In this document: one piece after another, positions 15,020 through 30,608 of the stretch | Numbering within the stretch: the stretch's first letter is position 1 | Layout of the letters: each line of letters starts with the position of its first letter | Assembly: GCA_963797555.1 (NCBI GenBank) | Contig: CAWCPV010000004.1 | Span: forward strand, 544,001-608,000 | Source of the DNA: an uncultured Gammaproteobacteria bacterium | Lineage (GTDB): Bacteria; Pseudomonadota; Gammaproteobacteria; CAWCPV01 | Direction of reading: 5' to 3' | Length of the DNA stretch: 64,000 bases | Notes under the pieces: model-generated | What the model saw: the letters and a program-made list of their open reading frames with translations, nothing else | Told to the model about the DNA's origin: nothing | Databases searched by the model: none | Position numbers and translations under genes: made by a program

Positions 15020-15734
15020 CTCGTGCGTTATGCCGATGATCTCCTCACTCGTATGTGCACGGGGGGTGGAGCCACCGATGCGGGTGCTGCGCAGCGTATT
15101 GAAGCGGCTGGGTCTCAGCCTCAACGAGGCCAAGACGCGGGTGGTGGATGCCCGAGAACAGTCCTTCGACTTTCTCGGCTTCAGCTTCCATCTGCGGCCC
15201 GAGTGGCCACAGTGGCAAACGCTACCCGCATGTCGAGCCGTCGAAGCGTTCGGTGCAGCGTATCAAAGACAGTACCAAGCAGTTGACCCATCGACGGCGG
15301 ACCCCGGTGCCGATGCCCCGGATCATCGGGGAGCTGAACCGGAGCCTGCGGGGCTGGAGCCACTACTTTCACCACCGCAACTGCAGTCAGGCACTGTCCA
15401 AGGTGAAGCTGCACGTGGAAGAGCGGGTACGTACCCATCTGCGTCGGCGCCACAAGCTCCTCAGCCGGGCGCAGGCGTACCGGCGCTTTCCCGGGCAGGT
15501 GCTCTACGGACGTTATGGACTCTTCAAGCTGCCGACGACGGCACCCTGGCGCACGGCGCATGCCCTGGCGTGAAGAGCATCGGAAAGCCGTGTACGGGAA
15601 AACCGTATGCACGGTTTGATGAGAGGGGGCTGGCTACTGCGGCTACGGATGGGCTATTGAGGCACCGCCAGCCGAAAGGGGCGGCAACAGATAGGCCCAG
15701 CCTACGGTCTCGGGACACCTGGCATCTACTCGAC
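15020..15734 (+). mobile_element. Group II intron 3' fragment: partial RT (YADD) and maturase, RNA domains V and VI
   Basis: RYADDL at ~15026; LGLSLNEAKTRVV, FDFLGF, LNRSLRGWSHYF maturase (stop 15573); DV aagccgtgtacgggaaaaccgtatgcacggtttg at ~15585; long DVI ending ctactcgac; 5' part missing. Confidence 0.85.
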
Positions 15735-15785: not shown

Positions 15786-18458
15786 ATGGGCGACTTGCAT
15801 CATCTTTCATCGCAGGAAGCGCTGGCTGCCGTTGATTCGACCGCGCACGGTTTGAGCCAAACCGAAGCGGCGCGGCGCCTCGCGCAATATGGCCCGAATC
15901 GCCTGACGCCCGCCAACCAGCGAGGCAGCCTGATGCGGTTCCTGCTGCAATTCCACAATGTGCTGATCTACGTGCTGCTCGCCGCGGCAAGCGTCACCGC
16001 ATTACTCGCGCATTGGGTGGACACCAGCGTGATCATCGGCGTCGTGTTCATCAATGCCGTCATCGGCTTCATTCAGGAAGGCAAGGCCGAGAAGGCGATG
16101 GATGCCATCCGCCGCATGCTTTCACCTGAAGCCACCGCGTTGCGCGACAGCCGGCGCGAAGTGATCGCGGCCGAAGAGCTGGTCCCAGGTGACATCGTAC
16201 TGCTGCAATCCGGCGACAAGGTGCCTGCCGATCTGCGCCTGCTGTCGGTGAAGAACCTGCGCATCGAAGAAGCCGCTCTCACTGGCGAATCCAGCGCGGT
16301 GGAAAAAAATATCGCCGCAGTGGACGACAATGCCCTTCTGGGCGACCGATTCTGTATGGCCTATTCGGGTACGCTGGTCGTGTATGGACAGGGCACGGGC
16401 GTGGTGATCGCCACTGCCGACAATACCGAGATCGGGCGTATCAGCGCCATGCTGGATGAAGTACAGACTTTGACCACCCCGCTATTGCGCCAGATGGATA
16501 TCTTCGGGCGCTGGCTGACGATCGCGATCACGGTGCTGGCGGTCTTTGCATTCTTCGTCGGCTGGCTGATACACCAGTTCGATCTCGGCGATATGTTCAT
16601 TGCCGCCGTGAGCATCGCAGTGGCGGCGATCCCCGAAGGTCTTCCAGCGGTGCTGACCATCACACTGGCACTGGGTGTGCGGCGTATGGCCAAACGCAAC
16701 GCCATCATCCGCCGCCTGCCTGCGGTGGAAGCCCTGGGTTCGGTAACCGTGATCTGTACCGACAAGACCGGTACCCTGACGCGCAATGAAATGACAGTGC
16801 AACGCGTTCTTACCGCCGACCGCGTGCTCGAGGTGAGCGGCGGCGGGTATGCACCGCATGGCGGATTCACCCTGGCCGGCAAGGATACGGATATCGCCGG
16901 CGACACCGAAGTACTCGATCTGTTGCGCGCCGGAATGCTATGTAACGATGCGGTGCTGCGTGAGAACGGCGGGACATGGCACGTAGCGGGCGATCCCACC
17001 GAGGGGGCGCTCATCACGCTGGCCATGAAAGGCGGTTTTGACCCGGTACGCGAACATGAATCGCTGCCACGCATCGATCTCATCCCTTTTGAATCGGAAC
17101 ACCGTTTCATGGCGACATTGCACCACGACCATGCGGGACATGCCTTTATCGTTGTGAAAGGTGCGGCCGAGCAGCTCCTGGCGATGTGCGACCGGCAGCG
17201 CCAGACGAATGCAGACGCACCCCTCGATCTGCAGCAGTGGCACGACAGAATGGCCGGGGCCGGCGCACTCGGCCTGCGTGTACTGGCTCTGGCGACAAAG
17301 TCTGTGGGCGCCGGGAAGCGCGAACTGAATTTTGCTGACATGCAGGGCGGTTTCTCGCTGCTCGGCCTGGTAGGCATCACCGATCCGCCGCGCGAAGAAG
17401 CCATCGCTGCCGTGCGCGACTGTCATGCGGCGAGCATCCGCGTCATGATGATCACGGGCGACCACGCCGGAACGGCGGGCGCGATCGCCACACAATTAGG
17501 CATCGGCAACGGCCGCACGCTCGGCGGAAGCGAACTGGATGCGATGGATGAGGCCGCATTGTTGCAGGCCGTGCGCGATGTGGACGTGTTTGCACGCGCC
17601 AGCCCAGAACACAAGCTACGCCTAGTCCGGGCGCTACAGGCCAACGGCGAGGTGGTTGCCATGACCGGAGATGGCGTGAACGACGCGCCGGCCCTGAAAC
17701 GGGCCGACATCGGCCTGGCCATGGGCATGAAAGGAACCGAGGTGGCCAAAGAAGCCTCGGGGATCGTGCTGGCAGATGACAACTTCTCCACTATCGCGCA
17801 CGCCGTGGAAGAAGGCCGCACCGTTTACGACAATCTCAAGAAGGCCATCGTGTTCATCATCCCGACCAATGGCGGCGAAGCAGGCATGGTGCTGGTCGCC
17901 ATCCTCTTCGGCATGACATTGCCGATCACCCCGGTGCAGATCCTGTGGGTCAACATGGTCACGGCGGTCACACTTGCGCTGGCACTTTCATTCGAAAAAG
18001 CAGAGCCGGATGTGATGCGGCGCCCGCCGCGTTCGGTCGGCGAACCGTTACTGTCCGGCTTCATGATCTGGCGCATCGTGTTCGTGTCTGTGCTGCTCAC
18101 GGCAGGCCCCATATTCCTGTTCACCTGGGAAAGCGCGCGCGGCGTCAGTGTGGAAATGGCCCGCACCGCCGCGATCAATGCATTGGTCGCCGGTGAAATT
18201 GCCTACCTGTTCAATTGTCGCTACCTGCTGGCACCGGTACGCACCTGGAAAGATTTCACCGGCAATTTCTACATACTGCTTACTGTTGTCATCCTGGCCA
18301 TCATCCAGGCCGTATTCACTTACACGCCATTCATGCATACGCTGTTCGGCGTCGTCGATATCGACTTCGCGGCATGGGTACGCATTCCGTTCTTCGGGGT
18401 GTCTCTGTTTGTGGCAGTGGAATTGGAGAAGATGCTGATCCGACGCATCAAAGGATAG
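15786..18458 (+). CDS. Cation-transporting P-type ATPase (type II, Ca2+-like)
   Basis: TGES, PEGL, DKTGTLT, KGA, MITGD, GDGVNDAPAL, QILWVNMVT. Confidence 0.95.
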   Translation: MGDLHHLSSQEALAAVDSTAHGLSQTEAARRLAQYGPNRLTPANQRGSLMRFLLQFHNVLIYVLLAAASVTALLAHWVDTSVIIGVVFINAVIGFIQEGKAEKAMDAIRRMLSPEATALRDSRREVIAAEELVPGDIVLLQSGDKVPADLRLLSVKNLRIEEAALTGESSAVEKNIAAVDDNALLGDRFCMAYSGTLVVYGQGTGVVIATADNTEIGRISAMLDEVQTLTTPLLRQMDIFGRWLTIAITVLAVFAFFVGWLIHQFDLGDMFIAAVSIAVAAIPEGLPAVLTITLALGVRRMAKRNAIIRRLPAVEALGSVTVICTDKTGTLTRNEMTVQRVLTADRVLEVSGGGYAPHGGFTLAGKDTDIAGDTEVLDLLRAGMLCNDAVLRENGGTWHVAGDPTEGALITLAMKGGFDPVREHESLPRIDLIPFESEHRFMATLHHDHAGHAFIVVKGAAEQLLAMCDRQRQTNADAPLDLQQWHDRMAGAGALGLRVLALATKSVGAGKRELNFADMQGGFSLLGLVGITDPPREEAIAAVRDCHAASIRVMMITGDHAGTAGAIATQLGIGNGRTLGGSELDAMDEAALLQAVRDVDVFARASPEHKLRLVRALQANGEVVAMTGDGVNDAPALKRADIGLAMGMKGTEVAKEASGIVLADDNFSTIAHAVEEGRTVYDNLKKAIVFIIPTNGGEAGMVLVAILFGMTLPITPVQILWVNMVTAVTLALALSFEKAEPDVMRRPPRSVGEPLLSGFMIWRIVFVSVLLTAGPIFLFTWESARGVSVEMARTAAINALVAGEIAYLFNCRYLLAPVRTWKDFTGNFYILLTVVILAIIQAVFTYTPFMHTLFGVVDIDFAAWVRIPFFGVSLFVAVELEKMLIRRIKG

Positions 18459-19093: not shown

Positions 19094-19910
19094 AAAGGGG
19101 CCAGGCTCGGATATCCTGTTGCACAAAGTGGATTCATACCGCCAGTGCTCCCTGGCCTGGGTCATGTGCGACGGAGTCGTCTCGCCTGGCACGCGGCCTG
19201 CCTCGCGGCTTCGGTTCCCGCCGCTGGCCCGTCACTGCCTCAATCTTGGCATAAAAACCGTGCATTGCCCAAAGGCTGATTCTGATTCAGCGCCAGCCGT
19301 AGGTCGTTGATCGCTTCTTGGTCCAGTTGCGCCCGGAACAGGCTCCGGTAGGCAGCCTGCCTTTCCTTCGCCTCCCTGCCCAGCGACAGATACAGAGGAT
19401 GCGGGGTGAAATACGGGTTGACCTGCCCCAGGGCATTGTGACGGTAGCTCGTCCAGCGGTAATGCGCAGGATCATCGATCATGGCTGCCCATGTAGGGGG
19501 TTGAGCTCGATGTATCGCTGGCAGGCAAGCAGGTAGGTTTCGGCTTGGATCAGCGAGGATTTGTAACGGCTATCCCATAGGGTGCGGTCCGGCGGTAGGT
19601 GGTGTTGATGTACTGCACGTAGCGCCGCCCCAAGGCAATGATCAGCCGGGGGACGGCTCCGGCATGCTCGGGGCTCAGAAGCAGGTGGACATGGTTGGTC
19701 ATCAACGCGTAGGCGTGAAGCGCGCACCGCTCTTTCTTCAACGCCTCGCCCAACCAGTGGAGGTAGGCCTGATAATCTCTTCGCCAAAGAAGCACGGTTC
19801 GCGGTTGTGCCCGCGTTGCACGATGTGCAGCGGTACGCCATCAAGATGGATGCGGGGGCGGCGGGGCACATTGAAGTATCATAAGCAAATACTTCGACCC
19901 TGGCCCCTTT
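19094..19910 (-). mobile_element. RAYT (REP-associated tyrosine transposase, Y1 HUH) element with 16-bp inverted ends; ORF ~19134..19869 frameshifted
   Basis: PRRPRIHLDGVPLHIVQRGHNREPCF, AYALMTNHVHLL, RYIELNP, YRWTSY; ends aaaggggccaggctcg / cgaccctggccccttt (15/16 inverted match). Confidence 0.85.
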
Positions 19911-19930
19911 GGCCCCTCCTTTGGCCCCCT

Positions 19931-20316
19931 AGGATGGCCTTGTCGCGCTCCAGCGCCTCGATCCGCCGGTCCTTGGCATCCTTGAGCGTCTTGCGACCAG
20001 GCTTCTTAGGTGCAAGCCCGGCCTCGCCTTCACGCTCGAGCTGCACACGCCAGGCTGCTAACTGGGAGCTGTACAGTCGCTCTCGACGCAGCAGCGCCGC
20101 CAGTGCTCCGCGTTCACTGCAAACCTCGGCCTCGGCCAAGATACGTTGCTTGTCCTCGGCCGAGAAGCGCCGGCGCAACCGCCGATCATGCTCAGGGTTG
20201 GCTACCACCTCAGTACCGCTTCCAACTGAAACAGGCTTGGGCATGACATCCTCCAGTGCGCCCTCGAATCATACTGACATTTCAAGAAACCCGTGTCTCA
20301 GTCATTATTGGCACAG
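19931..20316 (-). pseudogene. IS3-family orfA fragment with probable left end
   Basis: RRRFSAEDKQRILAEA..LLRRERLYSSQLAAWR; truncated at tggcccc repeats; TG-starting end tgtgccaataatgactgagacac. Confidence 0.75.
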
Positions 20317-20320
20317 AGGG

Positions 20321-20698
20321 GATGTATCGCTGGCAGGCAAGCACATGTCCACCTGCTTCTGACGCCCGAGCCGTCCCCCGGCTGATCATTGCCTTGGGGC
20401 GGCGCTATGTGCAGTACATCAACACCACCTACCGCCGGACGGGCACCCTATGGGATAGCCGTTACAAATCCTCGCTGATCCAAGTTTGGCGAAGAAGATT
20501 ATCAGGCCTACCTCCACTGGTTGGGCGAGGCGTTGAAGAAAGAGCGGTGCGCGCTTCACGCCTACGCGTTGATGACCAACCGAAGCACGGTTCGCGGTTG
20601 TGCCCGCGTTGCACGATGTGCAGCGGTACGCCATCAAGATGGATGCGGGGGCGGCGGGGCATTGACGTATATAGAAATAATTCGACCCTGGCCCCTTT
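20321..20698 (-). pseudogene. Second, scrambled RAYT copy (5' half with two internal segments inverted)
   Basis: Near-identical to 19509..19869 but 20344..20484 and 20485..20581 are reverse-complemented; same cgaccctggccccttt end at 20683..20698. Confidence 0.8.
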
Positions 20699-20735: not shown

Positions 20736-22043
20736 CTACAGTTCCGCATTAATGACCCGGCGGCGATACGGGCGCAGGATTCTGTGCAACACTGCGAGCC
20801 GCTCGACGTCGTCCTCGTATGTCGGCATTTGGAGAGCCCGGAGCATGAACGGCGGCCTACGGGACTTGCCTCGTGCAACAAGCTCCACATTCGTGCCCAC
20901 GGCGAGTCCCATGCCGGCTTCGATGCAAGTGTTCAGATTGTCGTCAGTGATATCAGCAAGTACCACGAACGCGTCGCATACCTTCTTCATGATGGCCGAC
21001 TGCAGGTTGTCCTCATGGATCTCGCTGCCGACAATTGTGGCCATGCCCGTTATCCGTTCAATCAGGTGTCGTATCGACCCGCCGGCCCGGGCCAGGTCGG
21101 AGTCCAGATCCATTGCACAGAAGACGTACTGGGGGGCAGGGGGCTCCCGCCACTGTTCCCACAGCCCGCTGAGGTTGACAGACACCGAAGTCGGGCATTG
21201 CGCCGCCGCAGTTTCCATCCGAAGCCAGCTAGCGTCGGAGCCATCGACGCGGCGGACCCGAGGGTCGGCGACTATCACGGTCGGGAGGTCGAGCCGGCCG
21301 GCTACGTCCATTTCATGAACGAAATAGTTGTATGGCCTCTCGCCAGCAGAGGCAGACTCAACTTCGCGAAAAGGGAGAATGCCGACAAAGGCTCCGCAGC
21401 TGGCGATGATGCGCTCGACCCTCTCGCCCATTCCGAAGCCCTTCTGGTCGCGAGCGTCTCCAATCAAGCGGAAGCCCTGTTGTACAAGAGCGCGGCACAC
21501 GGCACGCGCACTGTCGCTATCGTCAGGTTGCCAGGAACAGCTAATGAAGATGTCACGAGCAGTTGCTGGGTTCGGGCGCTTCTCGCCCGGGTAAAACGCT
21601 TGAATGATTGCGAGCGCGCTGTCGGGGTCGAGGCAAGGTCCGGGAAGGTCAATCCAGGTGGTGCCTCTGAGCAATTCTTCGACGTTCGCGTTAGGGAGGC
21701 GAAGTGCCACAACACGAAAGGCATCGTGGTTCGCGCGCTCGTCCATCGCCGAGTTGTATTCCGCCTTCACCCAACCCCGTGCGAGTGACTTGTCAGACGC
21801 CACCAGCAGTATCCCACGACATCGCTCTATAGCCGCTTGGAGATCGGTGGCGAGCAGCGCACCGCCAGCCAACTCTCGTGCGTCGTACCAGACGCGCAGG
21901 CCGGCATTCGTCAACCAGCGATCAAGCTGCGACACAAAAGCTGCGTCCTGATGCGCATGGCTCAGGAAGACGTTGAAGTCTCGCCTCTGTATCGGGAGAG
22001 TCATCGGGTCACCCGAGTACGCGGCACGAATTGCGTGGTCCAT
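20736..22043 (-). CDS. TIR-domain protein with a second TIR-like domain and a C-terminal nucleoside-deoxyribosyltransferase-like domain (gene cassette)
   Basis: FNVFLSHAHQD..WYD..WVKAEY; DIFISCSW; VLADITDDNLNTCIEAGMGLA; lies directly downstream of attC 22088..22145; start codon uncertain. Confidence 0.8.
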   Translation of the reverse strand: MDHAIRAAYSGDPMTLPIQRRDFNVFLSHAHQDAAFVSQLDRWLTNAGLRVWYDARELAGGALLATDLQAAIERCRGILLVASDKSLARGWVKAEYNSAMDERANHDAFRVVALRLPNANVEELLRGTTWIDLPGPCLDPDSALAIIQAFYPGEKRPNPATARDIFISCSWQPDDSDSARAVCRALVQQGFRLIGDARDQKGFGMGERVERIIASCGAFVGILPFREVESASAGERPYNYFVHEMDVAGRLDLPTVIVADPRVRRVDGSDASWLRMETAAAQCPTSVSVNLSGLWEQWREPPAPQYVFCAMDLDSDLARAGGSIRHLIERITGMATIVGSEIHEDNLQSAIMKKVCDAFVVLADITDDNLNTCIEAGMGLAVGTNVELVARGKSRRPPFMLRALQMPTYEDDVERLAVLHRILRPYRRRVINAEL

Positions 22044-22087: not shown

Positions 22088-22145
22088 GCATAACGTTGCG
22101 CTTAGCGGCGCGCTTCAGCGCGTCCGCTGAAGCAGCAAGTTAGGC
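22088..22145 (-). other. attC site
   Basis: Minus strand GCCTAAC-ttgct-gcttcagcggacgcgc-tgaa-gcgcgccgctaagc-gcaac-GTTATGC; 58-bp imperfect hairpin just after a stop codon. Confidence 0.9.
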
Positions 22146-22301
22146 GCGGCCTAGAATACCTCAATATCGTCACGGCTGAATCCGGCTAAATTTGCGATGA
22201 TCTGCTCGAGTCCCCACGTCGGCGAAACAAACGCCGCATCCAATCGGAAGCGATGGTTGTACAAGGTTCCGAAAGCGTTCAATCTCATCCTCGGGGCAGA
22301 T

Positions 22302-22353
22302 AACGAATAGCATTTTATCCGTCGTGCAACGAATAGCATTTTATCCGTCGTGC
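22302..22353. repeat. 26-bp tandem duplication aacgaatagcattttatccgtcgtgc x2 (half of the attC-like hairpin)
   Basis: Seen directly; present in copy 1 only. Confidence 0.9.
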
Positions 22354-22634
22354 GGCAGCATGATGGATAAAATGTGTTGAACTGAACCGCTGGATTCAGG
22401 CGACCGGCCTATGGGGATTGTATGGGGGCAGTCCCGCGTTGGGGCCGCTTGGGGTGTGGCTGGTCGGGTGGTTATGTGGTGCATGGACCGCTCGCTGGGC
22501 CTCGGTCTGGTGTGATGTCCCCCGCAGGGCACTATGGCAAAGGTGTGGTGGGCGGGTCAAGGGCTGGGGAAGGCCAAAGGGGACTGTGGCCGGCTTGCGG
22601 GGAAGCGGTCGGGGGCTTCGGCGGGTGATGGTCG

Positions 22635-23853
22635 TCATGAGAGCGGTGGGGGTCCGGTCGCTTTCGGGGTGGGGGGTGCAGCCCTGAGCGGCACCACGAG
22701 AACGATCCGCTGCAGGTGCCCTTCTCCGCAGTAGGGGCAGCGCTGGATATCGATGCCCGTCAGGCGCAGCATTGCCGCCCCCACCGACTCGGGTTCTCGT
22801 GGCGCTGGCGCTGGCTGGCCGAGCAGCGCCCGGCAACGGGCTAGGCGCTCGGTACGGTGGCGGTTGGCCAAGAGCCCGACATGGCGGATACGCATCAAGC
22901 CAGGTGGGAGCACATGGAGCAGGAAGCGGCGGATGAACTCCTCGGTCTCCAGACGCATCACTTTGATCCGATTGCCCCGGGCATAGTCCCGGTAGCGAAA
23001 GCGCACGGTGCCATCGTTGAGATCGAGGAGCCGCTCGTGGCTGATCGCCACCCGGTGGGTGTAGCGTCCCAGGTAGGCCAGCACCTGCTCGGGACCCGCA
23101 AATGGGGGCTTGGAGTAGACTACCCAGTCCTGGGAGTGCAGCTCGGTGAGAAAACGGTCAAAGCCCGCTGGCTCGGCGAGCCCCGCCAGCTCGCCGGCGA
23201 AATGCAGCTCACCGCGCCCGCGGGCCTGTTGCAGGATCTCCAGGTACTTGCCGCGGAACACCCGGGACAATGCCCGGACCGGAAACAGGAAGCCGCGCTT
23301 GGCGGGAATCCAGCGGCCGGCGTCGACGGAGAGCGCACCGCCGGTCACCACGCAGTGCACGTGGATATGCTGGCCGAGGTTCTGGCCCCAGGTGTGCAGC
23401 ACCAGGGTCGCGCCGAGTTCCCCACCGAGCCAGCGGGGATTGCGCCCAAAGTCCTGCAGTGTCTCGGAGGCGGCCCGGAACAGAGCATCGTAGATCTGCT
23501 TGGGATTGCCCTGCGCCAGCGCATTGAGAGCATGCGGCAGGGTGAACACCACGTGGAAGTACTCCACAGGGAGGAGCTCCCGCGCAGCGCGCCTGCAGCC
23601 AGTGCTCCTTGGCCAGCGTCTGGCACTTGGGGCAATGGCGGTTGCGGCAGGAGTGGTAGCGCAACTCGATGCGCCCGCAGCGGTCGCACTGCACCGCTTG
23701 AGCCCCCAGCAGGAGCGTGCGGCAGGCCTCGATGGCCCGCATCACCCGGTGCTGCTGAGCGCACAGCCGATGGGTTGCCCGGAAGTGCTCCCCGTGGGCC
23801 CGGAAGATATCCGCCAGCTCCAGCCGCCCCGCTCCCGCGGGACGGGTACACAC
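22635..23853 (-). CDS. IS91-family (Y2 HUH) transposase, copy 1, +1 frameshift near 23581
   Basis: SCRNRHCPKCQ zinc finger, YFHVVFTLP, LHTWG..HIHVH, YLGRYTHRVAIS, RIRHVGLLAN. Confidence 0.92.
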
Positions 23854-23856
23854 CGC

Positions 23857-24715
23857 CTAGAACTGCGTGGGGCTCTCAGGGATCTCCAGCAGGTCGAGCG
23901 GCGAGGCGGTGCCGGTCAGGCGCGGCCTCGCCAGGTGAAAGTAGCGCAGGGTGGTGCTGAGGTGCCCATGGCCCAACAGGCGCTGGATGGTGTGGAGAAT
24001 CCACTGCCGCCTCCAGCAGGTGGGTGGCGAAGGCATGCCTCAGCCCGTGGATGCCGCAGCGCTTGGTGATGCCCGCCCTGCGCTTGGCTGCATAATAAAT
24101 CTTCTGGGCCGAGCGGGGCTCGATGGGATGTTCCCCGTCGCGCAGAGGAAAGAGCCAGCGCTTGGGGCGGTAGGCCATCCAGTAACGGCGAAGCTCAAGG
24201 AGCAAGCGCTTGGAGAGCAGCGTGTAGCGGTCCTTCGCCCCCTTGGCCTGCTCCACCCGAAGGGCCATGCGCTCGCTGTCGATGTCCGAGACCTTGAGGT
24301 GCGCCACCTCGCTCACCCGCAGCCCCGCGCTGTAGGTGGCCATCAACAGCGCCCGGTGCTTGAGGTTCAAGGTCGCCTCGAACAGCCGCTTGATCTCCTC
24401 GCGGCTCAGGATCTCGGGCAGCCTGGAGGGCTGTCGGGGGCTCGGCAGACAGAACTCGGCCTCGGAGCGGCCCAAGCTGACTCGGTAGAAGAACCGCAGG
24501 CCATTGGCGATGATGTTACAGGTGCTGCTGGAAAGTCCCCGCTCCGGAAGCCCGTGCAGCAGGTAGCTCTGCACCTCGGGCTCGGAGATCTCGTCGGGCC
24601 TGTGTCGGTAGAACCTGGCCAGACCCCGTACCGCATCGAGATAAGCCTCGCGGGTGCGCACCGCCATCCCGCGCAGCACCATGTCGTCGTCCATCTTCGC
24701 GCGCAGCTCGCTCAT
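23857..24715 (-). CDS. Tyrosine recombinase with IntI-like N-terminal SAM domain, copy 1; frameshift at ~23999 puts LGH/catalytic Tyr out of frame
   Basis: LRG..RTREAY, LPEILSREEI, YSAGLRVSE, KGAKDR, HGLRHAFATHLLE; shifted frame reads DLHTIQRLLGHGHLSTTLRYFHL. Confidence 0.9.
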
Positions 24716-25148
24716 GACAGCCTCCTTTCAAGCAGAGAGTGGGAAAGACCCACGCAAAGCTTGGCAGAGCAGTCATGAGAGATCGCAAAACGTCAGGCGA
24801 AGATGAGGATCCGGCATAGCCGGTCGCATTACAGCGCCAAAATAGCGGAGCAGTTCAGCCAGAAACAATGCGAAAACGCCAAAAAAACCAAACCATCGCG
24901 TAAGCGGTTTAGTTCAACAATGAATGGGTGTGGAAGACTGAAGTTTCCCTTCTTTCGCCACCCACGTTCCCACCAGAATTCATTTCGGTAACGGCGACCG
25001 CCACCCGCACCATCGTTAGAACCCATCTGCTCGATAAAAGGTGTGATCTTCGAAATGGGCTGATCGTCGAAATGGCCGGCGTTATATCGAGATACCAGAC
25101 GGGATTTGCGCCTCCACCTCGACCTTGTTTCTTTGTTATCGCTATACC

Positions 25149-25852
25149 CATCCCATTACACACAACTTGAGGACACTCGTGTAACATCCTGACACAATGC
25201 TACAAGAGGGAGGGTGTCGGGATGAGCTGGGCAGCGGAGGAGTTCCAGGGCATTGACTTGGGCGACAAGCGGCTGGACAAGCGAGCGGTGTTGCTGGCCG
25301 AGCGGCTGGCGGAGAAGCCGACGGCGAGCATTCCAGGAGCGTGTGGGGGCTGGGCCGAGACCCAGGGGGCTTAACCGTGAGGCCGCCAGCTTCGAGCCAG
25401 CGGCCGAGATCATCGACTGGTATCGCGCCCGCTGGGAGATTGAACTCTTCTTCCACGTGCTGAAGAACGCCTGCCGCGTGGAGGCATTGCAGCTCAGCAC
25501 CATGGAACGCCTGGAACGGGCGCTGGCGCTATTCATGGTGGTCGCCTGGCGCATCGCCCGGCTGATGCGCCTGGGGCGCACCTGTCCGGACTTGGAGGCC
25601 GAGTGGTTGTTCGAGCGCGAGGAGTGGGAGGCAGCCTTCCTCCTGAACAAGAAACGCCCACCGAAGACGCCACCCCGACTGAACCAAGTGGTGCGTCTCA
25701 TCGCCAGGCTCGGCGGCTTCCTGGGGCGCAAGGGCGACGGCGAGCCCGGTGTGAAAACCCTCTGGCAAGGGCTGCAGCGGGTTATGGACTTCGCGGCAGG
25801 ACTGCACTACGCGCGTGAGGCCCAAGCCCTTTGACTTGTGTGTAACGAGATG
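25149..25852 (+). mobile_element. Internally deleted IS4-family (IS50/Tn5-like) element with terminal inverted repeats and a 9-bp target duplication
   Basis: Ends catcccattacacacaa / ttgtgtgtaacgagatg; TSD cgctatacc at 25140..25148 and 25853..25861; MSWAAEEF..LGDKRL N-terminus joined to YRARWEIE..FHVLK and LGGFLGRKGDGEPG C-terminus. Confidence 0.9.
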
Positions 25853-26153: not shown

Positions 26154-26216
26154 ACCTAACGTGCCAAGCTCAGGGGCCGCGACGTAGGAGCGGTCCCCTG
26201 GAGCGCAGAGTTAGGC
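26154..26216 (-). other. attC site
   Basis: Minus strand GCCTAAC...gctccaggggaccgc-tcctacgtc-gcggcccctgagc...GTTAGGT; includes the hicB stop codon. Confidence 0.88.
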
Positions 26217-26423
26217 CATGACCTCGACGTACTCCACATGGCTAGCCGGCTGCGGAATCGGCAGCCCGTCCTCGTGCATCCCCGCCAGGTGAAACTCAAT
26301 GGCTTCCCGGATGGCGACTTCAGTCTCCTCCACCGTGGCCCCAGTAGCCACACAACCGGGCAGGTCTGGAACGTAGGCCGAGTAGTTGCTCTCCGCCTTC
26401 TCAATCACGACCGCATAACGCAT
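26211..26423 (-). CDS. hicB: HicB antitoxin
   Basis: MRYAVVIEKAESNYSAYVPDLPGCVATGATVEE..IREAIEFHL. Confidence 0.92.
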   Translation of the reverse strand: MRYAVVIEKAESNYSAYVPDLPGCVATGATVEETEVAIREAIEFHLAGMHEDGLPIPQPASHVEYVEVMA

Positions 26424-26431
26424 GGCCACAC

Positions 26432-26620
26432 CTACTTTTTCCAACCCGCTTGCTTGAAGACACTGTTGAGCGTCCCAGGCGCCAGATCGTCGCTGGGCTT
26501 GCCCGCAACCGTCACGCGACCGGGCTTGGTCGGATGTTTCAACTGCCGATGGCTGCCCCGCGTTGCCACCACGTACCAGCCATCCTCCCGCAACTTCTCT
26601 AGCACCTCGCTGACCTTCAT
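26432..26620 (-). CDS. hicA: HicA toxin
   Basis: MKVSEVLEKLREDGW..RGSHRQLKHPTKPGRVTVAG..DLAPGTLNSVFKQAG. Confidence 0.92.
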   Translation of the reverse strand: MKVSEVLEKLREDGWYVVATRGSHRQLKHPTKPGRVTVAGKPSDDLAPGTLNSVFKQAGWKK

Positions 26621-26626
26621 CAAGCA

Positions 26627-26655
26627 AGCATACTGCCCCACTGAGAGGTGGTCAA
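26627..26655 (-). promoter_or_regulatory. Sigma70-type promoter inside the hicAB cassette
   Basis: TTGACC-17 bp-TATGCT, 6 bp upstream of the hicA ATG. Confidence 0.65.
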
Positions 26656-26675: not shown

Positions 26676-26753
26676 GCCCAACGCCGGTGCTCACCCGCGA
26701 CGACGGCGGCCGTCAGGCCGCCGGAGGCGTCGTGGTGGAGCGGCTGGTTAGGC
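26676..26753 (-). other. attC site
   Basis: Minus strand GCCTAAC..gctccaccacgacgcctccggcggcc-tgac-ggccgccgtcgtcgcgggtgagc..GTTGGGC; includes the upstream gene stop. Confidence 0.85.
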
Positions 26754-27236
26754 AGCGGAGCCAATTCCAGCATGCTCATTGATTTTCTCGAACCATATTT
26801 GAGCCATCTCTTTCGACATTGTGATGCCCCGTGGTAGAGGTTGCTCTGCTTCGATGTGGAGGTACAACGCGTGAGAAATCTCCGTGTACTCCTCGAAGAG
26901 TTCTGGGACGTTCGGTGCCCGCAGAATCAAACGCATGATTCGGAGCCAGCTATGAATCTGGTGTCGTCCGTCGCGGCTCTCAGTCTCTAGTAAGAGATAG
27001 ACGGACTGGTTGACCAGCGCTGGCAGAAGCGATCGAAGGTATGGAAAGTCCTTCTCCCAAAGTCCTTCAATCAACGCGATACCTACGCTTCGCTTTTGAG
27101 AACCGCCGGTCAGGTATTCCAGAGCCTGAATTAGAACCCGATGCCGCTGCTCGCCCCGACGCTCGAGGTACGCAGTGACGGCCAGGAGCCCAGCAACTAA
27201 CCAACCACCAACGGCAGCGATAACGGCTTCGGTCAC
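26748..27236 (-). CDS. Hypothetical cassette protein with an N-terminal TM helix
   Basis: GTG start after GTTAGGC and a GGAG RBS; stop inside the attC core; lower GC than the host genes. Confidence 0.7.
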   Translation of the reverse strand: MTEAVIAAVGGWLVAGLLAVTAYLERRGEQRHRVLIQALEYLTGGSQKRSVGIALIEGLWEKDFPYLRSLLPALVNQSVYLLLETESRDGRHQIHSWLRIMRLILRAPNVPELFEEYTEISHALYLHIEAEQPLPRGITMSKEMAQIWFEKINEHAGIGSAA

Positions 27237-27250
27237 GTCGAGTCTCCGCT

Positions 27251-27309
27251 GCCTAACGAATAGCATTTTATCCGTCGTGCGGCAGCATGATGGATAAAAT
27301 GTGTTGAAC
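27251..27309 (-). other. attC-like 59-bp hairpin terminating the Int/IS91 element (also at 22324..22382)
   Basis: Minus strand GTTCAAC-a-cattttatccatcatgc-tgcc-gcacgacggataaaatg-ctattc-GTTAGGC; RYYYAAC/GTTRRRY cores present, spacer register atypical. Confidence 0.7.
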
Positions 27310-27561
27310 TGAACCGCTGGATTCAGGCGACCGGCCTATGGGGATTGTATGGGGGCAGTCCCGCGTTGGGGCCGCTTGGGGTGTGGCTGGTCGGGTGGTT
27401 ATGTGGTGCATGGACCGCTCGCTGGGCCTCGGTCTGGTGTGATGTCCCCCGCAGGGCACTATGGCAAAGGTGTGGTGGGCGGGTCAAGGGCTGGGGAAGG
27501 CCAAAGGGGACTGTGGCCGGCTTGCGGGGAAGCGGTCGGGGGCTTCGGCGGGTGATGGTCG

Positions 27562-28779
27562 TCATGAGAGCGGTGGGGGTCCGGTCGCTTTCGGGGTGGG
27601 GGGTGCAGCCCTGAGCGGCACCACGAGAACGATCCGCTGCAGGTGCCCTTCTCCGCAGTAGGGGCAGCGCTGGATATCGATGCCCGTCAGGCGCAGCATT
27701 GCCGCCCCCACCGACTCGGGTTCTCGTGGCGCTGGCGCTGGCTGGCCGAGCAGCGCCCGGCAACGGGCTAGGCGCTCGGTACGGTGGCGGTTGGCCAAGA
27801 GCCCGACATGGCGGATACGCATCAAGCCAGGTGGGAGCACATGGAGCAGGAAGCGGCGGATGAACTCCTCGGTCTCCAGACGCATCACTTTGATCCGATT
27901 GCCCCGGGCATAGTCCCGGTAGCGAAAGCGCACGGTGCCATCGTTGAGATCGAGGAGCCGCTCGTGGCTGATCGCCACCCGGTGGGTGTAGCGTCCCAGG
28001 TAGGCCAGCACCTGCTCGGGACCCGCAAATGGGGGCTTGGAGTAGACTACCCAGTCCTGGGAGTGCAGCTCGGTGAGAAAACGGTCAAAGCCCGCTGGCT
28101 CGGCGAGCCCCGCCAGCTCGCCGGCGAAATGCAGCTCACCGCGCCCGCGGGCCTGTTGCAGGGTCTCCAGGTACTTGCCGCGGAACACCCGGGACAATGC
28201 CCGGACCGGAAACAGGAAGCCGCGCTTGGCGGGAATCCAGCGGCCGGCGTCGACGGAGAGCGCACCGCCGGTCACCACGCAGTGCACGTGGATATGCTGG
28301 CCGAGGTTCTGGCCCCAGGTGTGCAGCACCAGGGTCGCGCCGAGTTCCCCACCGAGCCAGCGGGGATTGCGCCCAAAGTCCTGCAGTGTCTCGGAGGCGG
28401 CCCGGAACAGAGCAGCGTAGATCTGCTTGGGATTGCCCTGCGCCAGCGCATTGAGAGCATGCGGCAGGGTGAACACCACGTGGAAGTACTCCACAGGGAG
28501 GAGCTCCGCGCAGCGCGCCTGCAGCCAGTGCTCCTTGGCCAGCGTCTGGCACTTGGGGCAATGGCGGTTGCGGCAGGAGTGGTAGCGCAACTCGATGCGC
28601 CCGCAGCGGTCGCACTGCACCGCTTGAGCCCCCAGCAGGAGCGTGCGGCAGGCCTCGATGGCCCGCATCACCCGGTGCTGCTGAGCGCACAGCCGATGGG
28701 TTGCCCGGAAGTGCTCCCCGTGGGCCCGGAAGATATCCGCCAGCTCCAGCCGCCCCGCTCCCGCGGGACGGGTACACAC
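27562..28779 (-). CDS. IS91-family (Y2 HUH) transposase, intact, 405 aa
   Basis: Zinc finger CRNRHCPKC, HUH motif HIHVH, YLGRY two-tyrosine motif. Confidence 0.95.
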   Translation of the reverse strand: MCTRPAGAGRLELADIFRAHGEHFRATHRLCAQQHRVMRAIEACRTLLLGAQAVQCDRCGRIELRYHSCRNRHCPKCQTLAKEHWLQARCAELLPVEYFHVVFTLPHALNALAQGNPKQIYAALFRAASETLQDFGRNPRWLGGELGATLVLHTWGQNLGQHIHVHCVVTGGALSVDAGRWIPAKRGFLFPVRALSRVFRGKYLETLQQARGRGELHFAGELAGLAEPAGFDRFLTELHSQDWVVYSKPPFAGPEQVLAYLGRYTHRVAISHERLLDLNDGTVRFRYRDYARGNRIKVMRLETEEFIRRFLLHVLPPGLMRIRHVGLLANRHRTERLARCRALLGQPAPAPREPESVGAAMLRLTGIDIQRCPYCGEGHLQRIVLVVPLRAAPPTPKATGPPPLS

Positions 28780-28782
28780 CGC

Positions 28783-29641
28783 CTAGAACTGCGTGGGGCT
28801 CTCAGGGATCTCCAGCAGGTCGAGCGGCGAGGCGGTGCCGGTCAGGCGCGGCCTCGCCAGGTGAAAGTAGCGCAGGGTGGTGCTGAGGTGCCCATGGCCC
28901 AACAGGCGCTGGATGGTGTGGAGAATCCACTGCCGCCTCCAGCAGGTGGGTGGCGAAGGCATGCCTCAGCCCGTGGATGCCGCAGCGCTTGGTGATGCCC
29001 GCCCTGCGCTTGGCTGCATAATAAATCTTCTGGGCCGAGCGGGGCTCGATGGGATGTTCCCCGTCGCGCAGAGGAAAGAGCCAGCGCTTGGGGCGGTAGG
29101 CCATCCAGTAACGGCGAAGCTCAAGGAGCAAGCGCTTGGAGAGCAGCGTGTAGCGGTCCTTCGCCCCCTTGGCCTGCTCCACCCGAAGGGCCATGCGCTC
29201 GCTGTCGATGTCCGAGACCTTGAGGTGCGCCACCTCGCTCACCCGCAGCCCCGCGCTGTAGGTGGCCATCAACAGCGCCCGGTGCTTGAGGTTCAAGGTC
29301 GCCTCGAACAGCCGCTTGATCTCCTCGCGGCTCAGGATCTCGGGCAGCCTGGAGGGCTGTCGGGGGCTCGGCAGACAGAACTCGGCCTCGGAGCGGCCCA
29401 AGCTGACTCGGTAGAAGAACCGCAGGCCATTGGCGATGATGTTACAGGTGCTGCTGGAAAGTCCCCGCTCCGGAAGCCCGTGCAGCAGGTAGCTCTGCAC
29501 CTCGGGCTCGGAGATCTCGTCGGGCCTGTGTCGGTAGAACCTGGCCAGACCCCGTACCGCATCGAGATAAGCCTCGCGGGTGCGCACCGCCATCCCGCGC
29601 AGCACCATGTCGTCGTCCATCTTCGCGCGCAGCTCGCTCAT
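28783..29641 (-). CDS. Tyrosine recombinase, copy 2, same frameshift (~28925)
   Basis: Translation identical to copy 1. Confidence 0.9.
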
Positions 29642-30022
29642 GACAGCCTCCTTTCAAGCAGAGAGTGGGAAAGACCCACGCAAAGCTTGGCAGAGCAGTC
29701 ATGAGAGATCGCAAAACGTCAGGCGAAGATGAGGATCCGGCATAGCCGGTCGCATTACAGCGCCAAAATAGCGGAGCAGTTCAGCCAGAAACAATGCGAA
29801 AACGCCAAAAAAACCAAACCACCGCGTAAGCGGTTTAGTTCAACAGTGAGTGGACCTTAAAGTGCGGTGGTTAAACACGGACATTGGTCCGTCTATCCCG
29901 CAGACCGTGCCCCGGCCGCCAGACCCTCCGGTTTGCTTCCAACGGAGTGATGTGCTTGGACGAACAAGCGGTTGCATGACACTCGATCACTGACGAGGCC
30001 CGGCAAAGCAGGCGTCCCTTCC

Positions 30023-30053
30023 GGGGATAGGCGGACATTGTCCGTCTATCCTC
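30023..30053. repeat. Near-perfect palindrome, with a partial direct copy at 29878..29902
   Basis: ggataggcggaca-t-tgtccgtctatcc; cggacattggtccgtctatcccgca upstream. Confidence 0.7.
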
Positions 30054-30608
30054 GCACGCGTCCACGGGGAAGGTTGTTCCGCTCAGGACACGGCCTCCCA
30101 GCGCGGCCTGATGTCGTCGACCGCCTGGACGGTGCCGGGTCCTCTCATGGCCTCCCATGTGCCTCCCGGTGGTCTGGTCCGCCACCTTTTCGGCCGCCCT
30201 CCCCCGAGGAGGACCGGCTTGCCCGTGCAACCCCCCGGAGGGAGCGCTTGGCGCTCTAACGAAGTCTGACGAGCGCGAGACGGGCTGTCAAGGCGGGCGC
30301 GCGGTTTACCGGGCGGCCGACGCCCGGGCCATCGGGCACCGGCGGGCGCACCTCGCTGGCAACGGCGCGCGGCGGCCGAGCAGGATGTCGACGCGGCTCA
30401 TGCCGGTAAAGCACATTGACGTCGGCCCCCAGCCGCGGCGCAAGGGCCAGGTCGGGCCGTTCGGGTCCCTTGTGCGCCGCCGAGGACGCGCAGCCTCACG
30501 GGCGAGCGTCGGCGCCCAGCACTGTCTGAGCCCGGCGTCCCGCCGGATCGGCGGATGGCAGGTCAGCGAGCGCTGGCGCAGGCAGAAGCCGGCCCTCGCT
30601 AGGCCCTG

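Follow-up and report, generated by a model that had tools for sequence, protein, structure and literature searches.

Is a 2.6-kb unit that stands first in an array of integron cassettes, carries a tyrosine recombinase gene next to an IS91-type transposase gene and ends in a hairpin a self-mobilising cassette, as an earlier note on this DNA proposed, or an insertion sequence (IS) with cassette-like ends? The unit lies in a 64,000-nt stretch (the window, contig C4:544001-608000; element coordinates are window positions) of the genome of an uncultured gammaproteobacterium, a draft in 20 contigs with an estimated completeness of 84.6%. The layout described in the note, namely a GTTGAAC start followed by the recombinase gene, the IS91 Y2 HUH transposase gene, a hairpin unit of about 59 nt and GTTAGGC, is indeed present on the minus strand (Table 1). 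Judged from its genes and ends, the element is a member of a widespread and already catalogued ISAzo26-like subgroup of the IS91 family. Our preferred reading, held with modest confidence, is that this copy (copy B) is an ordinary ISAzo26-like IS91 member that would transpose by a rolling-circle route into N, GTTA(G/T) and would hit cassette starts via the target contained in attC cores.

Two copies of the element and their ends

A second copy (copy A), which was overlooked by the earlier note, as were diverged copies on other contigs, lies 4.9 kb from copy B in direct orientation, and the flanks of the two copies are unlike on both sides. Only four differences separate them: the transposase gene carries two substitutions, a third lies near the left end, and a 1-bp indel at 23579 disrupts the transposase gene of copy A, so that only copy B has this gene intact. 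The transposase of copy B matched Pfam Y2_Tnp (211.1 bits) and Zn_Tnp_IS91 (103.7 bits) as well as the NCBIfam model NF033538 (446.3 bits, with a cut-off of 125 bits), and a search of Rfam gave no match within the element. Contigs C17 and C18 carry further copies at 88-93% identity, whereas C7, C8, C13 and C16 carry fragments.

The ends were fixed by comparing 5-7 copies in the genome, with which head-to-tail junctions in two related loci (L060 and L089) agree. On the left, N (T, T, A, T or C in the individual copies) is followed by GTTGAACTAAACCGC. On the right, GCGGTTCAGTTCAAC is followed by 1 nt, a 10-bp stem, an 18-nt loop, the complement of the stem, CTATTC and GTTA, beyond which the aligned flanks of the genome copies diverge. 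In copy B, the stem is formed by 27292-27301 with 27264-27273, the loop spans 27274-27291, and the spacer CTATTC occupies 27258-27263. The window element has its hairpin tail at the 3' end alone and a palindrome next to the left repeat, giving two distinct ends with subterminal palindromes. The complementarity of GTTGAAC and GTTCAAC, on which the earlier note had built its case, was confirmed, and the two heptamers turned out to be the tips of 15-bp terminal inverted repeats.

Several variant ends were observed. Tandem duplications of the last 10-26 nt, consisting of a stem arm, the spacer and GTT, occur in independent elements, namely at the 3' ends of L055, L082 and L084 and in the window at 22301-22353; the one in L055 (about 2620-2665) is like that of copy A. 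These recurrent duplications give two successive presumed nick sites and may be a record of faulty initiation or termination. A diverged copy at C18:42945-45395 has a hairpin tail at both ends, with the left-end tail inverted and abutting the left repeat, as if the tail module could occupy either inverted repeat. Solo tails on C13 and C16 were considered as non-autonomous cassettes and rejected, because they appear to be truncated 3' ends only.

Table 1. Positions of the element, its parts and the surrounding cassette features in the window
Feature	Position	Strand	Remarks
Copy B of the IS	27258..29844	minus	2587 bp under the IS91 rule, from the G that opens GTTGAAC to the final C of CTATTC
Copy A of the IS	22331..24918	minus	same recombinase frameshift as copy B; transposase additionally broken
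Left inverted repeat / terIS end	29830..29844	minus	gene strand GTTGAACTAAACCGC; subterminal palindrome next; GTTGAAC at 29844->29838
Right inverted repeat	27303..27317	minus	gene strand GCGGTTCAGTTCAAC; includes R''-like GTTCAAC, 27309->27303
3' tail / presumed oriIS	27258..27302	minus	1 nt after GTTCAAC, then stem-loop and spacer
Target tetranucleotide GTTA	27254..27257	minus	adjoins hairpin end; begins GTTAGGC (27257->27251) and the next cassette
Extra 26-nt tandem repeat of copy A 3' terminus	22301..22330	minus	half loop, stem, spacer and GTT; outer GTTA 22301-22304
IS91-family Y2 HUH transposase	27562..28779	minus	405 aa, intact in copy B
Tyrosine recombinase pseudogene	28783..29641	minus	main frame 29641->28802; catalytic-Tyr segment in another frame, 28962->28783
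attC-like site GCCTAAC...GTTGGGC	26676..26753	minus	78 nt; own scanner
attC-like site GCCTAAC...GTTAGGT	26154..26216	minus	63 nt; own scanner
attC-like site GCCTAAC...GTTATGC	22088..22145	minus	58 nt; downstream of copy A; own scanner
First cassette ORF after copy B, small membrane protein	26748..27236	minus	no family match
HicB-like antitoxin cassette ORF	26211..26627	minus	Pfam HicB_lk_antitox 47.2 bits
TIR-domain protein cassette ORF	20736..22043	minus	downstream of third attC; Pfam TIR_2 93.2 bits
Tn5/IS4-type DDE transposase, C-terminal fragment	25253-25834	plus	interrupts third-cassette ORF
ORF, open reading frame; oriIS and terIS, presumed initiation and termination ends of the IS.

Junctions, target sequence and possible circle form

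GTT is found at both junctions of the genome copies and, as the earlier note had anticipated, there is no target duplication beyond this shared GTT. GTTN inside the left end and GTTA or GGTA beside the right end are seen in all 7 right and 5 left ends of this genome, with GGTA replacing GTTA at the right junctions of the C17 and C18 copies. The 3' flanks read GTTA followed by G or T, including those of copies without integron context, and the tetranucleotide at the right end is GTTA, ATTA, GTTT or similar in other loci. Passages of PMC13181058 on the IS91 family describe elements that make no target duplication, insert beside a tetranucleotide abutting oriIS (GTTC for IS801 and IS1294) and are cleaved at a similar tetranucleotide at terIS (again GTTC for IS801 and IS1294); circle junctions linking oriIS and terIS, subterminal palindromes at each end and the insertion of the bottom single strand alone are described there as well (PMC13181058). 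The junctions of our element, GTTG and GTTA, obey this tetranucleotide rule, an outcome that the earlier note had counted against its own proposal, and they fit the G/TT rule of attC equally well. Because the two rules coincide within one base, they are not separable by sequence.

The note had proposed to look for circles with a GTTCAAC-hairpin-GTTGAAC junction, and in two related loci we found a hairpin that runs head to tail into (G/A)TTGAAC, as a circle-type junction would. The tail runs straight into the left end of another copy in L060 (CTATAC, ATTGAAC) and in L089 (CTAAAC, GTTGAAC), leaving a single GTT-type sequence between the units, as expected of an excised circle and equally of the IS91 family. 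Pairing between the R''-like and R'-like heptamers reaches 7/7 only when the 5' and 3' ends are joined, compared with 4/7 in situ (GTTCAAC vs GTTAGGC). When the circle junction was modelled with DNA parameters, the bottom strand folded at -29.7 kcal/mol (z -10) and the top strand at -21.9 kcal/mol (z -6). In the model, the junction is a single long helix in which the presumed nick site borders a 5-nt bulge on one side, a fold that would suit a nicking HUH enzyme and a recombinase site with two arms equally well.

Related elements and conservation of the hairpin

The DNA of the element matches 343 plasmid records at 60-90% identity. Among the 25 matches listed, most overlie an 'IS91 family transposase' beside a 'tyrosine-type recombinase/integrase', and one is the copy on plasmid 2 of Aromatoleum aromaticum EbN1, annotated as 'IS91-like element ISAzo26 family transposase' with a tyrosine recombinase. 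A scan with one genome per species yielded 597 relatives, 80 of which were kept for counts. The related loci span Pseudomonadota, Bacillota, Acidobacteriota, Planctomycetota, Nitrospirota, Bacteroidota and others. The recombinase gene lies upstream of the transposase gene in 76 of the 80 loci, the remaining four being short contigs or deletion derivatives, and its ORF has at least 270 aa in 61. The recombinase is a conserved accessory integral to the subgroup. The literature that we searched, including under the name ISAzo26, held no account of the ends or mechanism of this recombinase-bearing subgroup; ISfinder or TnPedia may describe the ends.

With up to three mismatches allowed, the left repeat was recognised upstream of the genes in 52 of the 80 loci and the right repeat in 31. 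In 25 of the 30 loci with a recognisable right repeat and a tail of at least 60 nt, this repeat is followed at a distance of 0-3 nt by a stem of 9 nt or more (77 of 1500 in a shuffled-tail control), which bears out the earlier note's expectation that the terminal hairpin would be conserved among homologues. The sequence of the stem differs by clade with both arms compensating, as in TTTTATCC/GGATAAAA, ATTGTATCC/GGATACAAT and TTTTTAGCC/GGCTAAAAA, and the loop varies from about 12 to more than 90 nt. After the stem comes a 6-7-nt spacer (CTATTC, CTATAC, CTCTGC) and then (G/A)TTA. Since the hairpin is kept across loci with compensatory changes in its stem, it is a conserved part of the element, and the possibility that it is a captured flank was ruled out. 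The tail stems are mostly perfect, without extrahelical bases that recur consistently, and the spacer is unequal, having 1 nt on one side and 6 nt on the other. An alphaproteobacterial clade (L063 and L064) apparently has plain inverted-repeat ends and no tail. Members of the ISAzo26 clade (L019, also L029, L043 and L053) carry a locus-specific motif of about 10 nt in both flanks, direct and inverted, such as TTATGGAAAG in L019, which suggests either a structured target or a true element that is slightly larger.

The recombinase

The window recombinase matched Pfam Phage_integrase (90.4 bits) and SAM_4 (59.7 bits). A frameshift shortly upstream of the catalytic-Tyr segment is common to copies A and B, and intact homologues are single ORFs of about 277-326 aa. 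Against the IntI model TIGR02249, which has a cut-off of 265 bits, the window recombinase scored 128.9 bits and five intact homologues 173-212 bits, all below the cut-off, compared with 502.5, 449.7 and 334 bits for true IntI proteins. Every IntI-model match falls into two stretches that skip about positions 178-233, so the IntI-specific insertion is absent, as the earlier note had surmised. In 5 of 5 intact homologues the IntI-model score exceeds the XerC and XerD scores (139-179 bits) and is similar to that of XerA. A quick tree, for which the thorough search is incomplete, placed 60 IS recombinases and 2 IntI apart from the XerC and XerD of this genome, with a support of 94 in the SH-like approximate likelihood-ratio test (SH-aLRT). 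The enzyme is IntI-like in its grouping in the tree and in its scores, but falls short of the IntI cut-off; by the profile comparison, the recombinase is not an IntI, and its reading frame is shifted in both window copies. Its kinship with IntI is real but already published, and the pairing of the two genes is not new either: in a passage of a preprint (10.1101/542381), the recombinases that IS91 and IS3 elements carry are assigned to an 'Integron-like' subgroup and are noted to be without the IntI insertion.

That copies A and B are near-identical and share the frameshift hints that copying needed no recombinase in cis. Help in trans from a related recombinase elsewhere in the genome, for example at C5:279346-280104, or gene conversion is a possible alternative explanation of the shared frameshift.

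Association with integrons across loci

The array setting without intI that the earlier note reported was confirmed: copy B adjoins GTTAGGC and lies upstream of three attC-like sites, and no intI is present in the window. These sites were called by a simple pattern-plus-fold scanner written for this analysis, which is not IntegronFinder and whose sensitivity is uncalibrated. The enrichment in attC arrays predicted by the note was not borne out. Most loci lack attC context, and a strict scan of 82 loci (631 kb) gave three hits, namely the elements' own tails in L022 and L093 and one unrelated site.

Real cases of integron placement do occur, in cassette orientation. A search with the IntI of this genome identified a true intI (449.7 and 334 bits) adjoining 2 of the 80 loci within 5 kb. 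The L093 element, about 2.2 kb away from intI, is inserted exactly at an attC crossover (GTCTAAC ... CAGAC), so that the R' box GTTAGAC expected of this attC now stands behind the CTATTC of the element, with another attC downstream; the R''-like GTCCAAC is complementary to the flank in 6 of 7 positions. The intI of L093 (891-2000, minus) shows an apparent frame change just upstream of the catalytic tyrosine segment, and this integron may be inactive. The tandem pair of copies in L089 begins about 470 bp away from intI. By a rough estimate, which takes the integron prevalence of about 10% from the abstract of PMC3575428, 2 of 80 within 5 kb of intI is far above random placement. An IS91-like element, ISShvi3, is also mentioned within a Shewanella integron in part of PMC9229058.

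Inspection by eye had suggested that the 5' flank is targeted through hairpins, a candidate that was rejected by a structure test on 46 insertions. Upstream structure was not above that of control windows, with a median rank of 0.57 for 50 nt (Kolmogorov-Smirnov (KS) p 0.63, 6 insertions below 0.1) and 0.58 for 100-nt windows (p = 0.24, 3 below 0.1), a test that is weak for long attC sites.

A proposed rolling-circle route and its alternatives

Onto the gene identities, ends, conservation, junction rule and copy number observed here, we would map the following catalytic steps and strand by analogy with IS91, IS801 and IS1294. The HUH transposase would nick the bottom strand where the hairpin end (oriIS, comprising the stem-loop and CTATTC) meets the target tetranucleotide. 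Rolling-circle replication would then displace the bottom strand up to the left end (terIS), where the element's own GTTG would serve as the second cleavage site, and the single-stranded circle would be re-inserted 5' of a new GTTA(G/T). The attC-like look would thus come from the element's own oriIS hairpin and inverted repeats, and its placement at cassette starts from the preferred target held by attC R' cores (GTTAGGC, GTTAGAC). We incline to this route given the family of the transposase, the ISAzo26-type gene pair, the recombinase in 76 of 80 loci, the parallel with IS91 junctions, the head-to-tail loci L060 and L089 and the predicted junction fold. The scarcity of attC context in most loci, the lack of enriched upstream structure and the frameshift common to two near-identical copies also speak for it.

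Several points weigh on the other side. A recombinase kept in nearly every member across many phyla should act on some site of the element, and our scheme gives no step for it. The recombinase groups with IntI and not with XerC/XerD, both by hidden Markov model scores and in the tree (SH-aLRT 94, with 2 IntI and 2 Xer only). The two loci of 80 beside intI, the window array and the Shewanella case (as mentioned in PMC9229058) seem to exceed what a 5-nt target preference alone would give, and the GGTA shared by the C17 and C18 copies at the right junction is awkward if this tetranucleotide is purely target-derived. The frameshift shared by copies A and B could come from gene conversion and not from transposition of a recombinase-dead element. 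Finally, no member of the subgroup is known to transpose, and the pertinent part of PMC13181058 gives four active members of the IS91 family only.

The model of the earlier note, which we regard as unlikely, is that a single-stranded circle made by the HUH enzyme folds like attC and is joined to a GTT target by the element's own IntI-like recombinase, making the unit a self-mobilising cassette. The folded junction would have an attC-like geometry, in which an arm of 15-16 bp is followed by a 5-nt bulge on one side and by a second arm whose loop is variable, and the architecture is kept in 25 of 30 loci. What reads the extrahelical bases of a folded attC is the IntI insertion; this insertion is absent from the recombinase here, and the tail stems have no consistent extrahelical bases to be read and spacers of 1 vs 6 nt. 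The recombinase is carried by 76 of 80 loci and, in line with the grouping given in the preprint passage (10.1101/542381), is IntI's nearest kin, whereas the junction rule is equally that of IS91 (PMC13181058, in part). Insertion exactly at an attC crossover in L093, the tandem pair beside intI in L089 and the likeness of the flanks of this genome's copies to cassette starts speak for the model, but targets in general are neither hairpins nor attC arrays, and the recombinase is broken in both window copies.

In a wider form of this idea, which we hold to be quite unlikely, the whole IS91 subgroup would consist of autonomous 'proto-cassettes' that combine an HUH-made single-stranded circle, a two-arm fold and an IntI-like recombinase acting at GTT.

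Capture by a host integron is a very doubtful alternative. Here, the circle of an ordinary IS91-type element would mimic a cassette and be inserted at attI or attC by the resident IntI, and the window copies would be relics in an array from which intI was later lost. New cassettes are inserted by IntI at the position nearest to intI, and this is the position that the L089 copies occupy. The junctions of L093 are exactly attC.../GTT and CTATTC/GTTAGAC, the strict scanner calls the tails of L022 and L093 attC-like, and a complete intI resides on C7 of this genome. Most copies nevertheless lie outside any detectable integron, neither attC nor attI can be recognised in the sequence immediately upstream of copy B, and the GTTA(G/T) 3' flank is also found in copies without integron context. 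Compared with the model of the earlier note, capture would explain the integron cases better and the bulk of the copies less well.

Coincidental likeness, with the two copies produced by segmental duplication or an assembly error, is barely credible: although the genome is a draft of 20 contigs with 84.6% completeness and the copies are direct and 4.9 kb apart, their flanks differ on both sides, copies with other flanks occur on four other contigs, and short contigs from soil sequencing runs match parts of the element exactly. These contigs come from a survey of public sequencing runs, in which 11 runs matched (the best with 0.30 of the sampled words) and four soil runs were examined, yielding short contigs only, among which a circle junction, an empty site or a piece spanning the element did not appear; one contig of soil run X2 covers 28855-29075 with zero differences. 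Because X2 may be the source sample of the genome, its match is not independent support. The readings set out here are not mutually exclusive.

The surrounding cassette array

On the minus strand, copy B is followed by the membrane-protein ORF, an attC-like site, the HicB ORF, a second attC-like site, an interrupted ORF, copy A, a short ORF, the third attC-like site and the TIR ORF. A search of the window with the TIGR02249 profile found no intI; in the whole genome the complete intI on C7 alone exceeds the cut-off, and there is a fragment on C3. The three attC-like sites without an intI in the window make this a small, IS-ridden array of the CALIN type (cluster of attC sites lacking an integron integrase). 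The listed ATG of the first cassette ORF, at 27266, falls within the IS tail, and its start is likely the GTG at 27236 behind GGAG. The Tn5/IS4-type fragment at 25253-25834 is flanked by short inverted sequences and is a second kind of IS remnant in the array.

No attC was found to the right of copy B, where a repeat of about 710 bp is followed by an efflux-pump gene. This high-GC stretch (29867-30576), directly upstream of copy B, has a longest ORF without a family match and is repeated at 78-85% identity in at least five other places in the genome (C16, three on C4, and C7), two of which are near IS copies or fragments. It contains a palindromic motif twice, GGACATTGGTCCGTCTATCC-like, at about 29881 and 30035. 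We found no empty insertion site among 40 other genomes, whose kinship is at class level only and in which the neighbouring efflux gene is the one shared feature.

At the left edge of the cassette region, 19544-20581 contains inverted repeats with arms of 86, 77 and 42 nt (97-100% complementary) around about 700 nt, 80-nt direct repeats and internal ORFs without a Pfam match, and may be an inverted duplication or an unidentified element. Further away, the Rfam model of the group II intron catalytic domain was matched at 15583-15734 (+) with 46 bits against a gathering score of 40, shortly before the gene for a P-type ATPase (15786-18458).

Significance and comparison with known systems

As it stands, a small cassette array interrupted by two copies of an IS of a catalogued type is an ordinary annotation result. 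The wider pattern gives a cheap and concrete hypothesis for an unstudied IS subgroup present in many phyla and on hundreds of plasmids. It has four parts: a hairpin end kept across phyla, repeats that would pair in a single-stranded circle, GTT junctions, and a recombinase that is the closest kin of IntI, in elements that are repeatedly placed at integron cassette positions. The pattern bears on the origin of integron integrases and attC sites; if the proto-cassette reading were true, IntI and attC would descend from, or share an ancestor with, a recombination module of such an IS. According to a passage of PMC13181058, IS91-family elements can co-mobilise neighbouring DNA when termination fails, and two direct copies bracketing cassettes could in this way move them together.

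The closest known elements are ISAzo26 and its relatives, which share the gene order, a left end of GTTGGACTAAACCGC (compared with GTTGAACTAAACCGC in the window), the right repeat GCGGTTCAGTCCAAC, the hairpin tail, the 6-7-nt spacer and (A/G)TTA. ISAzo26 is about 65% identical to the window element at the DNA level and differs from it in the stem sequence, in its 63-nt loop and ATTA as against 18 nt and GTTA, and in that the recombinase is broken in the window copies. The experimentally active IS91, IS801 and IS1294 resemble our element in the Y2 HUH transposase, the lack of target duplication and the similar tetranucleotides at oriIS and terIS, as well as in subterminal palindromes and circle junctions (PMC13181058, in the sections concerned), the latter represented for the window element by the head-to-tail loci of its relatives. 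All three lack a tyrosine recombinase, in place of which IS91 has orf121, and they use GTTC/CTTG targets, compared with GTTA here. Part of PMC13181058 describes the IS91 family as having no classical terminal inverted repeats, while repeats of this kind, 15 bp long, are present in this subgroup.

Integron cassettes and attC sites share with the element GTT at both junctions without duplication and a folded site in which two arms are paired and the loop is variable, and the element stands at cassette positions in L093, L089 and the window array. In integrons, the bottom strand of attC is the active strand, as in IS91. Unlike a cassette, the element has two genes and a length of 2.6 kb, its R''/R' pairing exists in the circle form only, its spacer is asymmetric without consistent extrahelical bases, and most copies lie outside arrays. 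Unlike IntI, its recombinase is without the IntI insertion and below the IntI cut-off. ISShvi3 of the Shewanella integron may belong to the recombinase-bearing subgroup. Elements that target attC use a DEDD transposase (IS1111-attC) or a reverse transcriptase/ribozyme (group IIC-attC introns). The IS1111-attC group and the group IIC-attC introns are mobile elements specific to attC, as mentioned in PMC9229058, whereas the association of the present element with attC is occasional.

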